DNA of 64,000 nt from Candidatus Woesebacteria bacterium GW2011_GWF1_31_35. GTDB taxonomy: Bacteria > Patescibacteriota > Microgenomatia > UBA8517. Shown in pieces: positions 9,309-21,001 of this stretch (its first letter is position 1; each line of letters begins with the position of its first letter). The stretch covers positions 365,767 to 429,766 of the forward strand of contig CP011214.1 in the NCBI GenBank assembly GCA_001029755.1, read 5' to 3'. The position numbers and the translations under genes are program-made. The notes under the pieces are model-generated. The model made no database searches. It had not been told where the DNA came from and was given only the letters and a program-made list of their open reading frames with translations.

Positions 9309-10100
9309 GCCAGTACAAGTTAAGGGTTGACTCGCCTTCAATTGGTTGAAAACTCCACTAAGAACCTTTACTTTTAAAGAAATTTAATTACTAATAAATA
9401 AGTCTTAAATAAGAAAGAGCCGTAAGTTAATTTTTATTTTAGTTTGCTCCTGTTCGTGTTTGTGGCTTATTTATTATTAATTATTTTGTTCCTTAGTACT
9501 TTGAAAACTAAATGTGACAAGTAATTTATCTGAAAATTTATTTTTTCGTTAGTATGTAAAATAATTTTCAGGTTCAAGTTGTGACTAGGAGTGTGTAAAA
9601 GATGTTTCCGATATCGTCAAAAATTCGGAACCGTCACTTTTTGAGGATTTGATCCTGGTCCAGGATGAACGCTAGCGGTGTGCTTTAAGCATGCAAGTGG
9701 GACGAGTTGTAGCAATACAACTAGTCGCGAACGGCTGAGTATAAAATAGGAATCTACCCAATGGTGTGGAATACCTTATCGAAAGATGAGCTAATACCAC
9801 ATGACCTCGCAAGAGAAAAGGACTTAACTGTCCGCCGATGGATGAGCCTATTTCCCATCAGTTTGTTGGTAGGGTAATGGCCTACCAAGACTATGACGGG
9901 TAGGGGATTTGAGAGGATGACCCCCCAGAACAGGACTGAGACACGGCCTGTACACCTACGGGTGGCAGCAACTGGGAATCGTGCGCAATGGACGAAAGTC
10001 TGACGCCGCGACACCGCGTGAAGGATGAAGGCCTTTTGGTCGTAAACTTCTTTTGCCATATGGGTGACCATATGGAGAATAAGCACCTGCTAACTCTGTG

Positions 10101-11003
10101 GATTTTTAAAAATTGGTGCAGAGTACTGATAGTAATATCGGTAGAGAAAACTTCGCTATATGCTGGAACATTTTGTAAACAGATAGATACTAACATTATC
10201 AAAGGATGATGACAGTGAAAATTTTATCTGAAACCCTAAAAAACAAGCGGTTTGTATGTGGGTTACAAAACTATCAGCAGGTAACCTTTTTGAGAAATCA
10301 AAATGGGCACCTCAGAGACTACACGCGAAGCTCCGTTAGATATATAATTATCTAATCGGATGATGATATAGTCCACGCTATTTATGTCAGATATAAATCA
10401 AATAATAGTTGGATCGATATTGGGAGATGGAAGTTTATCACCTTTAACTAAAAGGAATAAATATTCAACTCTAGATATTTCTCAACATGAGAGTAAATTG
10501 CCTTATTTAAGGTGGTTATATGATCAACTAACAAAGAAATTTGAATTAAATCCGATATATCAGAAAAAAGGTTTTGAGAATCAATATAGGTTTAGAAGTA
10601 AGCCAAATAAGACTCTTGGAATTTTTAGGTCTAAATTTTATGACAATTTAACAGGTTGTAAAATTATTCCAAAAGATATAGGAGATTTACTAAAAAACCC
10701 AATTTCTTTGGCAGTTTGGTATATGGATGACGGAACTTTAGATAAAAGATATAAGTATCATTTAAATTCTTCAATCGCAACAAATTGTTTCTCATTTGAG
10801 GAATGCAGTTTGTTGAGTGAGGTTTTAAATGATAATTTTAAACTTAAAACGTCTGTTAATAAGACTACAATGAGGGGTAAGATTTACCCCAGAATTTATT
10901 TTAAGTCTGAATGTATGAATGATTTTATTAAGATCATCAAGCCTTATATTAATTCAGTTTTTAATTACAAAATTGGAATTGAATAATCTAAACTATAGAG
11001 TAG
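10101..11003 (+). mobile_element. Group I intron 1 in 16S (inserted before CCAGCAGCCGCGGTAATAC), carrying a LAGLIDADG ORF. Boundaries are accurate to a few nt.
   Basis: Exon continuity ...aactctgtg|...|ccagcagccgcgg. Core elements: P-like ctatatgctggaa, Q actatcagcagg, R cctcagagactacacg (10308), S gatgatatagtcc (10361). Confidence 0.8.
10384..10986 (+). CDS. LAGLIDADG homing endonuclease (encoded in intron 1)
   Basis: IVGSILGDGSL motif, plus a second LAGLIDADG-like block AVWYMDDGTL. Confidence 0.8.
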   Translation: MSDINQIIVGSILGDGSLSPLTKRNKYSTLDISQHESKLPYLRWLYDQLTKKFELNPIYQKKGFENQYRFRSKPNKTLGIFRSKFYDNLTGCKIIPKDIGDLLKNPISLAVWYMDDGTLDKRYKYHLNSSIATNCFSFEECSLLSEVLNDNFKLKTSVNKTTMRGKIYPRIYFKSECMNDFIKIIKPYINSVFNYKIGIE

Positions 11004-11276
11004 CCAGCAGCCGCGGTAATACAGAGGGTGCAAGCGTTATCCGGATTTATTGGGCGTAGAGCGTTTCGTAGGCGGTTTGGTAAGTTAGACTTCAAAGACC
11101 ACGGCTCAACCGGGGGAAGGGGTCTAATACTGCCAGACTTGAGGGTTTTAGGGGCAATCGGAACTGTTGGTGTAGGGGTGAAATCCGTTGATATCAACAG
11201 GAACGTCAAGGGCGTAGGCAGATTGCTGGGAAACTTCTGACGCTGAGGAACGAAAGCTAGGGGAGCGAAAGGGATG

Positions 11277-12337
11277 GGGTTTATAAACTCTAGTTCCTCC
11301 GTTAAGTAATTAACGGTTTAAAAATTCGACTATATGCTGGAATAACTGTGTATCTTAGACTAGTATTGACTTTGGTTTTAATTCGGATAATACTGAATTA
11401 ATGCCCAAATTAAATACTGAAAATGTTTTAAGTGCAGTCAATCAGCAGGGAAGATCTCGAAAGAGAAACCCTCAGAGACTATATGTCGAATATCCTAGTA
11501 AGAATGTAATAAGTAATATAGAAGCAACTTTATTGGGTATCTTATACACTGATGGTTGTTTATCTAGAAAGAGTAAGAATGCTTGGAGATTTTATCTAAG
11601 TAATACTTCTTACGAGATTATACAAATATTTAAAAATTGTATGATTAAACTTTTTGGATTAAACACTAAAAGAATAAGAATATCTAAATATGTTGTTAAT
11701 GGTAAGCCTTTTTATAAAGCAATTGTAGATAGTGCATCATCTGGAGAATTTTTAAATTCAAAATATGGTACATTTCGAACTCTTGCTTATAAAAGTGTAG
11801 ATGGTAAAGTAATTTATCCTTCTACAAAATTACCGTTTAACAAAAATTCTAATCGCAAAATAATTTGCAAGTTTTTAAAAACTGCATTTAGTTGTGATGG
11901 AGGTATAAATTTATATGTAGCAAAATCAAAGTTTGGTTACAAATTTTTGATTAGAAATGCATATTTAGCTTGCAAACATCCACAATTACAGATTGATTAT
12001 CATAAACTTTTAAAAGTTCTTGGTATTAAATCTAAAATTTTTGAAAAAGATGGAAAAATACTTATTCAAGGAAGAAATGAATTGAATAAATTTAGTAAAA
12101 AAGTTGGTTTTCTAAAAAGAGTCAAGATAACACAAAATTCTAAATTTTGGCAAGGTGCTGAAAAAGAAAAAGTGTTAAATCTTGCATTAAATTCTTACAA
12201 TAATCCGAGAAAGATTATAAATCTTTCAAAGTTTAAAGGATAAAGATATAGTCCGACCTCATAAGCGATTATGAGACTACGTGTTGAATCGTAGTAAACA
12301 AACTATTTATAGTTTGTTATAACAAATTTGTAGAGAC
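11277..12337 (+). mobile_element. Group I intron 2 in 16S (around the 785 region), carrying a LAGLIDADG ORF
   Basis: Exon ...gggagcgaaagggat|...|agacccctgtagtcctagccgtaaac. Elements: ctatatgctggaa (11335), Q aatcagcagggaag, R cctcagagactatatg, S aagatatagtccgacc (12243). Confidence 0.8.
11401..12243 (+). CDS. LAGLIDADG homing endonuclease (intron 2). The N-terminal region reads through the intron core Q/R elements.
   Basis: LLGILYTDGCLSRKS motif, 280 aa. Confidence 0.65.
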   Translation: MPKLNTENVLSAVNQQGRSRKRNPQRLYVEYPSKNVISNIEATLLGILYTDGCLSRKSKNAWRFYLSNTSYEIIQIFKNCMIKLFGLNTKRIRISKYVVNGKPFYKAIVDSASSGEFLNSKYGTFRTLAYKSVDGKVIYPSTKLPFNKNSNRKIICKFLKTAFSCDGGINLYVAKSKFGYKFLIRNAYLACKHPQLQIDYHKLLKVLGIKSKIFEKDGKILIQGRNELNKFSKKVGFLKRVKITQNSKFWQGAEKEKVLNLALNSYNNPRKIINLSKFKG

Positions 12338-12629
12338 CCCTGTAGTCCTAGCCGTAAACTTTGCCTGCTAGCGATCCGACTTTGGTCGGGTTGCGTAAGC
12401 TAACGCGTTAAGCGGGCCGCCTGGGGAGTACGAACGCAAGTTTAAAACTCAAAGGAATTGACGGGAAGGCGCACAACCAGTGGAGCATGTGGTTTAATTC
12501 GAAACGAAACGAAGAACCTTACCCAGTCTTGACATATTACCGTTTTAGATTGCCAGAAATGGCGATCGATCCTTAAGTAATTTTGGATGGTATTACAGGT
12601 GTTGCATGGCCGTCGTCAGCTCGTGTCGT

Positions 12630-19740: not shown

Positions 19741-19794
19741 TCGGACTCTATCCAGTGGGATCGTTCGAGTTTTGATGGGAGTTGTCCACAGTAG

Positions 19795-20555
19795 AAATTT
19801 GCTGCCAAGCATAGCAATATGTTTGGTCACACTAGCTAAAATCGGTGAAACCCTGTATCATCTATATAGATGGTCCTATCTAAGTACAGGACAATACCGA
19901 GGGAAGGTTTCTTTTATGAACAAAACTACATCAGCCTACATAGCAGGTTTTTTCGATGGTGATGGAAGTGTAAGAATACAACTACAACCTAGAAAAAATT
20001 CCAGTTTAGGATATCGCATTAGAATTATCGTTTCTTTTGCTCAGAAATCTGAGCATGGCGAAGGATTAAAATGGATTAGGAAGCAGTTAGGCATTGGTTA
20101 TATTTATTCCAGAAATGATGGAATGGATGAACTTAAAGTTGAAGGGTTTGAATCATGTGAGAGAGTACTTAAAATGCTTTCACCATATGTTCAATTCAAA
20201 AAAGAGCATGTCAAATTAGTTTTGAAAGCTCTTTCGATACTTAAAGTTAAATCAAATGCTATTTTAGAAATATCAGAGATTTCTGACCAATTATCTAAAA
20301 TTAATTATGCTACCACAAAGAAAAAACATACAAATGAAGCTGTTCGTGAGTTTTTGTCAAAGAAGATATACCCCCGTAACGACTGATTCAATGAGATTTT
20401 AAGCTCAAAGAAGAGATGGCATAAACGCCATAAGTAAACTTGCTGCTTCGCAGTAAGCAAGCTTGTGGTGCAAGCACCATAATAACGCTAGCTCCTTTTA
20501 ACTATTAAAAGGATGAAGGTATAGTCTAATCCTCAAAGTAATTTGAGATCGATTG
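19795..20555 (+). mobile_element. Group I intron 9 (subfamily B) in the TAGTACGAGAGGACC region, carrying a LAGLIDADG ORF
   Basis: Exon ...gttgtccacagta|...|cgagaggacctgg. Elements: aaatcggtgaaac, caataccgagggaag, tacccccgtaacgactga (20374), gatgaaggtatagtcta (20510). Confidence 0.7.
19916..20386 (+). CDS. LAGLIDADG homing endonuclease (23S intron 9). The true start is probably the internal ATG at 19916; the ORF-track start at 19772 lies in exon/intron-core RNA.
   Basis: MNKTTSAYIAGFFDGDGSV motif. The upstream 48 codons overlap the 23S exon sequence. Confidence 0.75.
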   Translation: MNKTTSAYIAGFFDGDGSVRIQLQPRKNSSLGYRIRIIVSFAQKSEHGEGLKWIRKQLGIGYIYSRNDGMDELKVEGFESCERVLKMLSPYVQFKKEHVKLVLKALSILKVKSNAILEISEISDQLSKINYATTKKKHTNEAVREFLSKKIYPRND

Positions 20556-20881
20556 ACGAGAGGACCTGGATGAAGGAATCCCTGGTGTGCCGGTTGTGTC
20601 ATCAGACGCAGCGCCGGGTAGCTATATTCCTAAGGGATAACCGCTGAAAGCATCTAAGCGGGAAGCCTACCCAAAGATTAGAACTCGTTAGTTTAAAAAC
20701 TTGAAGACCCCAGGCAGAATACCTGGTATAACCGGCAGGAGGTGGAAGTCCCGTAAGGGGTTAAGCCTACTTGTACGGATTGGTCGAAGAAGACCTTACA
20801 ACACTTCATATCGTGGAAGTGTTTAGATTAACAAAGTTATTTTTTATATTTAGTATTATCCTTCAGTTGTCAGAGTATTGA

Positions 20882-21001
20882 GTCTTGGTGACTTGAGCGC
20901 GGTGGAACCACCTGATTCCATTCCGAACTCAGAAGTTAAACGCCGTAGCGCTGACGATAGTTACCGGGCAACTGGTCGCGAAAATAAGTCGTCGCCAAGA
21001 C
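20882..21001 (+). rRNA. rrf: 5S rRNA
   Basis: gtcttggtgacttgagcgcggtggaaccacctgattccattccgaactcagaagttaaacgccgtagcgctgacgatagt...gtcgccaagac. Matches the 5S consensus, and the terminal helix pairs. Confidence 0.85.

Follow-up and report, generated by a model that had tools for sequence, protein, structure and literature searches.

The window analysed here is a stretch of 64,000 nucleotides (nt) from Candidatus Woesebacteria bacterium GW2011_GWF1_31_35 (contig CP011214.1). Its positions 9640-21000 are filled by ribosomal RNA (rRNA) genes on the + strand, in the order 16S, tRNA-Ile, tRNA-Ala, 23S and 5S, which is the classical bacterial arrangement. These are very probably the rRNA genes of a member of the Candidate Phyla Radiation (CPR, or Patescibacteria) interrupted by nine group I introns, six of them with endonuclease genes. 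Rfam searches of the interval returned the bacterial small subunit (SSU) rRNA as pieces, the bacterial large subunit (LSU) rRNA, the 5S rRNA and two tRNAs. The 16S rRNA gene (~9640..14015, +), delimited by the Rfam SSU pieces and by alignment to E. coli rrsH, is 4376 bp long in the genome and ~1468 nt without its four introns, and the 23S rRNA gene (~14974..20799, +; Rfam LSU, 1869 bits) is 5826 bp long and ~2949 nt without its five. Between them lie tRNA-Ile (GAT; 14412..14484, +) and tRNA-Ala (TGC; 14719..14794, +), both found by ARAGORN and Rfam, and the 5S rRNA (RF00001, 82.9 bits) follows at 20884..21000 (+). Together the introns take up 5785 nt, roughly one half of the locus (11.36 kb), with 2908 nt inserted in the 16S gene and 2877 nt in the 23S gene. 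Their G+C content is 31.4%, set beside 32.6% for the whole window and 50.5% and 45.9% for the exons.

Intron borders were set by eye, followed by in-silico splicing and alignment to rrsH and rrlH of E. coli (locus L001; three-digit L numbers denote the loci fetched for comparison). The four 16S insertions follow E. coli U516, U788, U1078 and U1498, the five 23S insertions follow U1917, U1931, U2593, U2604 and U2656, and the introns are named after these positions (S for 16S, L for 23S). At all nine introns the last base of the 5' exon is U and the canonical sequence is restored over the junction, e.g., CUCUGU|GCCAGC for S516 and GUAACUAU|AACUGU for L1917 in the RNA predicted from in-silico splicing. 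The spliced 16S and 23S sequences align end to end with rrsH and rrlH; the former is collinear with uninterrupted 16S genes (loci L036, L055, L063 and others) and the latter with 23S genes from 80 other genomes. A sequence-only reading made earlier on this window had counted four 16S introns and five 23S introns and had named spliced exons that fail to restore full-length rRNA as the finding that would overturn it. Splicing and the E. coli alignment bear out the count, and no such failure was seen because the spliced rRNAs are collinear over their full length and empty sites exist in relatives. The exon continuity it described also held, and several of its exact borders did not, being 1-2 nt off the register with U at -1; the corrected junctions are gggat|tagagacccc, gtaactat|aactgttctaaggt|agcgaag, cgtgagacagt|tcggac and cacagt|acgagagg.

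The sites hit are the most conserved and functionally central positions of both large rRNA genes, and the decoding centre, the loop of helix 69 (H69), the peptidyl-transferase region and the sarcin-ricin loop are affected. Crowding of the 23S insertions leaves two very short internal exons. One of them, AACTGTTCTAAGGT (17240..17253, +; 14 nt, E. coli 1918-1931), lies between L1917 and L1931 and serves both neighbours, its bases 1-6 forming P10 with the L1917 guide and its bases 8-14 forming P1 with the L1931 guide. The other, CGTGAGACAGT (19351..19361, +; 11 nt, E. coli 2594-2604; CGUGAGACAGU as RNA), is identical to E. coli. Each of the two must be recognised simultaneously by two adjacent introns.

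By their core elements the introns, all on the + strand, fall into two classes. Class A, with the elements ATGCTGG, AATCAGCAGG, CAGAGACTA and GATATAGTCC, comprises S516 (10100..11002, 903 nt), S788 (11276..12330, 1055 nt), L1917 (16960..17239, 280 nt), L1931 (17254..17959, 706 nt) and L2604 (19362..19740, 379 nt). Class B, where ATCGGTG pairs with ACCGAGGG, comprises S1078 (12630..12884, 255 nt), S1498 (13277..13971, 695 nt), L2593 (18602..19350, 749 nt) and L2656 (19793..20555, 763 nt). L1917, L2604 and S1078 contain no open reading frame (ORF). Helices were assigned by hand and their complementarity was then checked by a script. A P1 helix with a terminal U·G at the 5' splice site was found in nine of nine introns, with 7 bp in five of them (S1498, 13270-13276/13293-13299; L1917, 16953-16959/16970-16976; L1931, 17247-17253/17266-17272; L2593, 18595-18601/18612-18618; L2604, 19355-19361/19395-19401), 6 bp in two (S516, 10094-10099/10118-10123; S788, 11270-11275/11293-11298), 5 bp in S1078 and 4 bp in L2656 (19789-19792/19801-19804). 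P10 was located in S516 (10113-10117/11003-11007), S788 (11288-11292/12331-12335) and L1917 (16964-16969/17240-17245).

P3 is likewise complementary in all nine introns, with nine different sequences (e.g., GUUGAC/GUCAAC, CUUCGC/GCGAAG, UCUAGC/GCUAGA and CUGGC/GCCAG), and therefore covaries between paralogous introns. Its strands lie at 10151-10156/10325-10330 in S516, 11325-11330/11485-11490 in S788, 12675-12679/12820-12824 in S1078, 13324-13328/13414-13418 in S1498, 17014-17019/17134-17139 in L1917, 17278-17283/17826-17831 in L1931 (across the ORF), 18646-18650/19248-19252 in L2593, 19505-19510/19625-19630 in L2604 and 19832-19836/20487-20491 in L2656, and in three introns it encloses a complete ORF (470-520 nt). 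P4 and P7 are complementary in nine of nine as well, and the GACU/AGUC of the guanosine-binding helix P7 is kept throughout. Three class B introns have extra hairpins between P7 and the 3' strand of P3, which in S1078 are P7.1 (12767-12788) and P7.2 (12792-12815). The complementarity of P1, P3, P4 and P7 in every intron confirms the group I core that had been proposed for all nine. As to the R and S elements that the sequence-only reading had assigned to all introns, S is present in 9/9 (within two mismatches), and the R motif CAGAGACTANACG only in 6/9 (within one mismatch), with the variants GTAGAGACTGA and GTAACGACTGA in L2593, S1078 and L2656; the counts of both motifs exceed those in all of 100 shuffles.

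The Rfam search that had been suggested as a check gave a divided outcome, in that the group I intron model RF00028 matches all nine introns and its gathering score of 50 bits is reached only by L1917 (69.9 bits) and L2604 (70.7 bits). S516 searched alone covers the full model with 46.1 bits (E=7e-11). The scores of the others are 31 bits for S788 (E=9e-5), 30.2 bits for S1078 (E=1.6e-4), 33.4 and 20.2 bits for the 5' and 3' parts of S1498, 31.8 bits for L1931 (E=5e-5), 33.6 bits for L2593 (E=1.5e-5) and 31.1 bits for L2656 (E=9e-5). We attribute the low values to the ORFs of several hundred nt inside the loops and, in the ORF-less S1078, to P7.1 and P7.2. Recent duplication of introns within the genome was considered and rejected, since an all-against-all BLAST of the nine introns gave short core similarity only (74-100% over 18-90 nt). 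The longest match is that of L1917 with L2604 (79% over 90 nt), and S788 matches L1917 at 93% over 42 nt in the P9 region. Recent ectopic spread was dropped on the same grounds.

Six intron ORFs, all on the + strand, encode LAGLIDADG proteins, the number proposed earlier, and all six pass the Pfam LAGLIDADG cut-offs. The S516 ORF (10384..10986, 200 amino acids (aa), in P9) encodes a two-motif, I-SceI-like LAGLIDADG_2 protein (PF03161, E=1.6e-34; I-SceI in PDB, 7e-8), and LAGLIDADG_3 proteins (PF14528) are encoded in P8 of S788 (11401..12243, 280 aa, E=5e-10) and in P8 of S1498 (13423..13938, 171 aa, E=7e-11), neither of which matched a PDB sequence. The L1931 ORF (17342..17806, 154 aa, in P6) encodes a single-motif LAGLIDADG_1 protein (PF00961, E=3e-25) with 5273 homologues and a likeness to one half of I-OnuI-type enzymes (PDB I-PanMI/I-OnuI halves, E=5e-43). 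The proteins of L2593 (18720..19235, 171 aa, in P6) and L2656 (19916..20386, 156 aa from the ATG at 19916; PF00961) are of the single-motif I-CreI family and match the PDB sequences of I-CreI, I-CvuI and I-MsoI, the former with 6e-31 to I-CvuI and ~1e-25 to I-CreI and the latter with 1e-17 and ~1e-15. A 156-aa gene at the position of the L2656 ORF is annotated in other assemblies. The L2593 protein is 40% identical to I-CreI, and its GFLDGDG aligns with GFVDGDG, including D20. The acidic motif residues are kept in the six proteins (GFVDGEG, GFLDGDG, GFFDGDG and GYFDAEG; ILGDGS with YMDDGT; LYTDGC with FSCDGG). For the S516 endonuclease, the ratio of nonsynonymous to synonymous substitution rates (dN/dS) against its homologue in locus L086 is 0.10, and this gene is therefore under purifying selection.

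The ORFs run into elements of the ribozyme core. The 5' part of the S788 ORF reads through the 3' strand of P4, P6, P7 and the 3' strand of P3, the 3' end of the S1498 ORF overlaps the S element, and the 3' end of the L2656 ORF overlaps the R element at 20372-20386. In the L1931 endonuclease family the residues N11, Q12, Q13 and R15 are invariant, and the NQQER codons of the L1931 ORF double as the Q element AAUCAGCAGG (3' strand of P4, 17374-17379). Such conservation of NQQ(E/G)R, apparently a feature of the protein, probably reflects constraint on the RNA, because the Q element encodes the motif. The S788 ORF also contains NQQ(E/G)R, likewise encoded by its Q element (11442-11447).

Comparison with relatives reveals both occupied and empty sites. 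The loci L086 and L087, ~88-91% identical to the window in this region, have an exact empty S788 site (11275 joined to 12331), and L087 and L090 have an empty S1078 site (~12632 joined to 12885). Diverged relatives hold the same introns with conserved exons, and introns homologous to L1931 occur at the same site in 35 of the fetched loci. The anatomy of the locus, the continuity of its exons, the endonuclease families, the empty sites in relatives and the purifying selection on one endonuclease are direct observations. Near-identical sequence (99.9-100%) is found in four public assemblies, the downstream S1-domain gene and the same neighbours recur on GCA_000989165.1 and on groundwater assemblies, and a protein identical to one of the window's is named Candidatus Woesebacteria bacterium RIFOXYC1_FULL_31_51, in agreement with the CPR origin deduced from the letters.

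An intron-packed rRNA locus is a documented, already known hallmark of this lineage. In 380 16S and 348 23S CPR genes, insertions were found in 48% and 82%, respectively, with means of 1075 nt (16S) and 1327 nt (23S) inserted and maxima of 16 insertions per gene and of 5627 nt (16S) and 5750 nt (23S), and about one third to one half of the insertions were group I-like introns (Tsurumaki et al., 2024, J Bacteriol; PMC11270868). The window shows the same phenomenon in the same lineage, with nothing different in kind. Its load of 2908 and 2877 nt is above those means and below those maxima, and its 23S inserted length ranks third among 48 complete 23S genes in a sample that was fetched via the L1931 endonuclease and is thereby biased to intron-rich genes. 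The density that the sequence-only reading had placed at the high end is thus above average and not extreme, and its verdict of a lineage marker rather than a novelty fits the survey. The 23S sites 1917, 1931, 2593, 2604 and 2656/2657 of the window match the recurrent list of that survey, where LAGLIDADG_1 was concentrated at 1917, 1931, 1952, 2593, 2604 and 2657. LAGLIDADG_3 was confined to 16S, as it is here (S788 and S1498), and the CPR enzymes were mostly single-domain (PMC11270868). One of them, I-ShaI, was shown to cut its 23S insertion site (PMC11270868). Insertions were absent from CPR transcripts according to Brown et al. (2015), as relayed in PMC11270868.

Similar arrangements are known outside the CPR. 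The LSU genes of Synechococcus sp. C9 and S. lividus likewise house single-motif LAGLIDADG genes in introns at L1917, L1931 and L2593, where the reading frames also extend into the ribozyme core, and the Synechococcus L2593 intron has P7.1/P7.2 like the extra hairpins of our three class B introns (Haugen et al., 2007; PMC1995217). Synechococcus differs in having at most three introns, in 23S only, and the L1917 intron of the window has no ORF. I-CreI, I-CvuI and I-MsoI from the L2593 intron of green-algal chloroplast 23S genes share with the L2593 protein of the window (E=1e-25 to 6e-31) the size class, the single LAGLIDADG motif and the insertion site. Unlike that algal family, the proteins of the window, which are putative homing endonucleases, have a bacterial host, and there is a second family member at L2656.

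In the splicing mechanism that we propose on the basis of group I chemistry, each intron would be transcribed within the pre-rRNA and fold into a group I core of P3-P9, in which P7 provides the guanosine pocket, and its internal guide would pair with the final 4-7 nt of the exon upstream, placing U·G at the splice site. An external guanosine would then cleave at the 5' splice site, and the freed exon end would attack the 3' splice site, so that the exons are joined and canonical 16S and 23S rRNAs restored. The six LAGLIDADG genes, placed in peripheral loops (P6, P8 and P9), would encode enzymes that cleave alleles lacking the intron at the corresponding rDNA site, and repair of the cut allele by recombination would copy the intron. 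The empty sites in relatives and the dN/dS of 0.10 for the S516 enzyme lend such cleavage indirect support. Such endonuclease-driven mobility would explain the patchy presence and absence of introns among related species.

Splicing, exon ligation and endonuclease activity would be expected from group I chemistry and from the published work on CPR. Several points weigh against this scheme. Seven of the nine introns stay under the RF00028 gathering score, the P1 of L2656 has just 4 bp, and in the hand assignment of helices no P10 was found for L2656, L2593 or L2604. The G normally needed at the intron end for the second splicing step is missing from S516 and L1917, and efficient self-splicing of these two is not assured. 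A single transcript is also uncertain given the promoter-like and terminator-like elements of the spacer, which are consensus matches only.

These elements lie in the spacer between the 16S and 23S genes (window 14016-14973, all +). A terminator-like hairpin with a T run is located at 14154..14181, 140 nt past the 16S 3' end, and a second one, seen by eye, at 14642..14671. A promoter-like TTGACG-18-TATAAT with 11 of 12 consensus matches lies between tRNA-Ile and tRNA-Ala (14500..14529), and weaker promoter-like sites lie at 14244..14273 and 14670..14699. Since the spacer contains both kinds of element, the 16S gene, tRNA-Ile and the tRNA-Ala/23S/5S block may be separate transcription units. 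Of the term operon, used for the locus in the sequence-only reading, the canonical gene order stands, and co-transcription is not assured in view of the two hairpin/T-run elements and the 11/12 promoter match.

Seven introns end in G, which is near-universal at this position, and two, S516 and L1917, end in A. For correct rRNA these two must use the terminal A, because in any other register the 530 loop or the H69 loop would lose or gain bases, and the terminal-A register is the only one that restores canonical rRNA and fits P1 together with P10. In L1917 the guide ACAGUU|GUAGUUA pairs without gaps with UAACUAU|AACUGU, and the 3' site is therefore fixed after ...CAUCAUA; the L1917 introns of loci L030, L048 and L076, read in this register, have a terminal G. 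In S516 pairing is between the guide UUGGU|GCAGAG and CUCUGU|GCCAG, and the last bases of the intron are ...GAGUA. The terminal A of S516 is common to three species ~10% diverged (the window, L086 and L087), its relatives in L088, L090, L092 and L099 end in G, and the S516 intron of locus L100 ends in C. Among 42 introns of the fetched loci, counted only where the 5' splice site was verified by P1 guide pairing, the last base is G in 33, A in 8 and C in 1. The other non-G ends, with the register set by exons and guide, belong to the L1931 introns of loci L012, L037 and L137 and to the L2604 intron of L006. A motif-based count for L1931 (14 of 36 non-G) was dropped, as it includes an intron class without recognisable guide pairing and an ambiguity of register at AG starts.

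From this distribution we tentatively suggest, as a proposal that could well go either way, that terminal A recurs, and is evolutionarily stable, in class A-type group I introns of bacterial rRNA genes. Introns with a terminal A show no alteration on the guanosine-pocket side of P7; a compensatory change of the pocket was considered and rejected, the S element being the same as in terminal-G relatives. Should exons indeed be ligated from a terminal A, introns of this class would tolerate bases other than G in the second step of splicing, or be helped in it, with much greater frequency than the one Coxiella precedent implies. Splice-site nucleotides were outside the analysis of PMC11270868, and the review PMC3984707 does not mention Coxiella. 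The Coxiella 23S gene also has two group I introns around a very short exon, one of them reportedly without a terminal G (Raghavan et al., 2007), and both are spliced from pre-23S rRNA (PMC4990558). The second Coxiella intron is at 1951 and the internal exon is 34 nt long, compared with 1931 and 14 nt in the window. The Coxiella element without terminal G is reportedly the one at L1917, and is said to end in A. The terminal-A introns are the one less ordinary detail of the locus, and they might be its only point worth an experiment.

The terminal A also gives room for other accounts of S516 and L1917. Some insertions, chiefly these two, could be excised without ligation, either by host RNases or because the splice sites are hydrolysed, leaving mature rRNA fragmented like that with RNase III-processed intervening sequences. 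Intervening sequences that fragment the rRNA are known in bacterial 23S and may occur in CPR (PMC11270868), which together with the missing terminal G lends this idea some ground. Yet both introns have full cores and form 11 and 13 contiguous pairs of P1 plus P10 across the junction, a layout that serves ligation; the breaks would hit the 530 loop and the H69 loop instead of the variable helix tips where known fragmentation occurs, and the terminal A of S516 is kept in three species ~10% apart. We therefore regard excision without ligation as unlikely. Less likely still is a shifted register of S516, with the 3' site at the next G (11003) or with the first G of the intron (10100) read as exon, which would give a 16S rRNA without G517 or a 5' site that is not U. 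Since the intron begins with GG and is followed by G, a terminal-G register does exist on paper; it would need either G at -1, where P1 has its U·G (10099), or a 530 loop lacking one universally conserved base, and homologues that start with A (L092 and L100) permit only U516|G517.

We give almost no weight to the idea that assembly made a chimera here, or that this rRNA copy is dead, with functional genes elsewhere. Assemblies of this region can be faulty, as GCA_000989165.1 (locus L003) lacks window 12341-12409, 12983-13097, 15336-15459, 15968-16065, 18109-18422 and 26693-26841, five of which lie within conserved rRNA exons. All six stretches are present in L002, two of them in L004 and one in L005, and the gaps look like assembly errors in that one record. 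Identity to the window is 99.9-100% in the loci L002, L004 and L005, universally conserved sequence is retained in the exons, and diverged relatives show the same introns between conserved exons. One rRNA copy is usual in CPR genomes (PMC11270868), and the operon described here is probably the organism's only one. Functioning rRNA genes colonised by nine group I introns, with splicing as proposed above, remain the account we prefer.

As a compact natural case of many ribozymes and homing endonucleases crowding core rRNA sites, the locus presents nothing new in kind; new are the details, namely the two introns ending in A, the 14- and 11-nt exons, three split primer sites and the promoter-like and terminator-like elements of the spacer. 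Introns split the standard 16S primer sites 515F (516/517), 806R (788/789) and 1492R (1498/1499). With a 16S gene of 4.4 kb the organism would escape amplicon surveys or be mis-sized in them, and rRNA callers give such genes in pieces, as Rfam did with the SSU. In large sulfur bacteria (Thiomargarita and relatives), a different lineage, several self-splicing introns lengthen the 16S gene and defeat PCR surveys as well, a case cited in PMC11270868. A separate observation concerns the 5' end of the 16S gene (window 9640-9662), GAGGATTTGATCCTGGTCCAG, which differs from the usual site of primer 27F in having GGTCCAG in place of GGCTCAG near the 3' end of the primer.

Close relatives of the L1931 endonuclease (48-58% identity) and their introns were also seen in 23S genes of metagenome-assembled genomes that are not labelled as CPR, i.e., in loci L055, L063 and L067-L082 (Acidimicrobiia/Actinomycetota) and L015 and L023 (Acidobacteria), and in several of the Actinomycetota loci with an L1931-type intron the adjacent 16S gene is uninterrupted. 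Most of the loci L006-L085, where CPR loci were fetched via the 23S intron, have no 16S gene within 10 kb upstream of the 23S gene, and 16S-23S linkage as in the window is not the rule in that sample. An antisense ORF at 17940-18485 was judged spurious, being located within an exon of the 23S gene and matching no Pfam family. Downstream of the operon, window 26693-26841 marks an in-frame length difference of 149-150 nt between assemblies within a large ORF (918 vs 868 aa).

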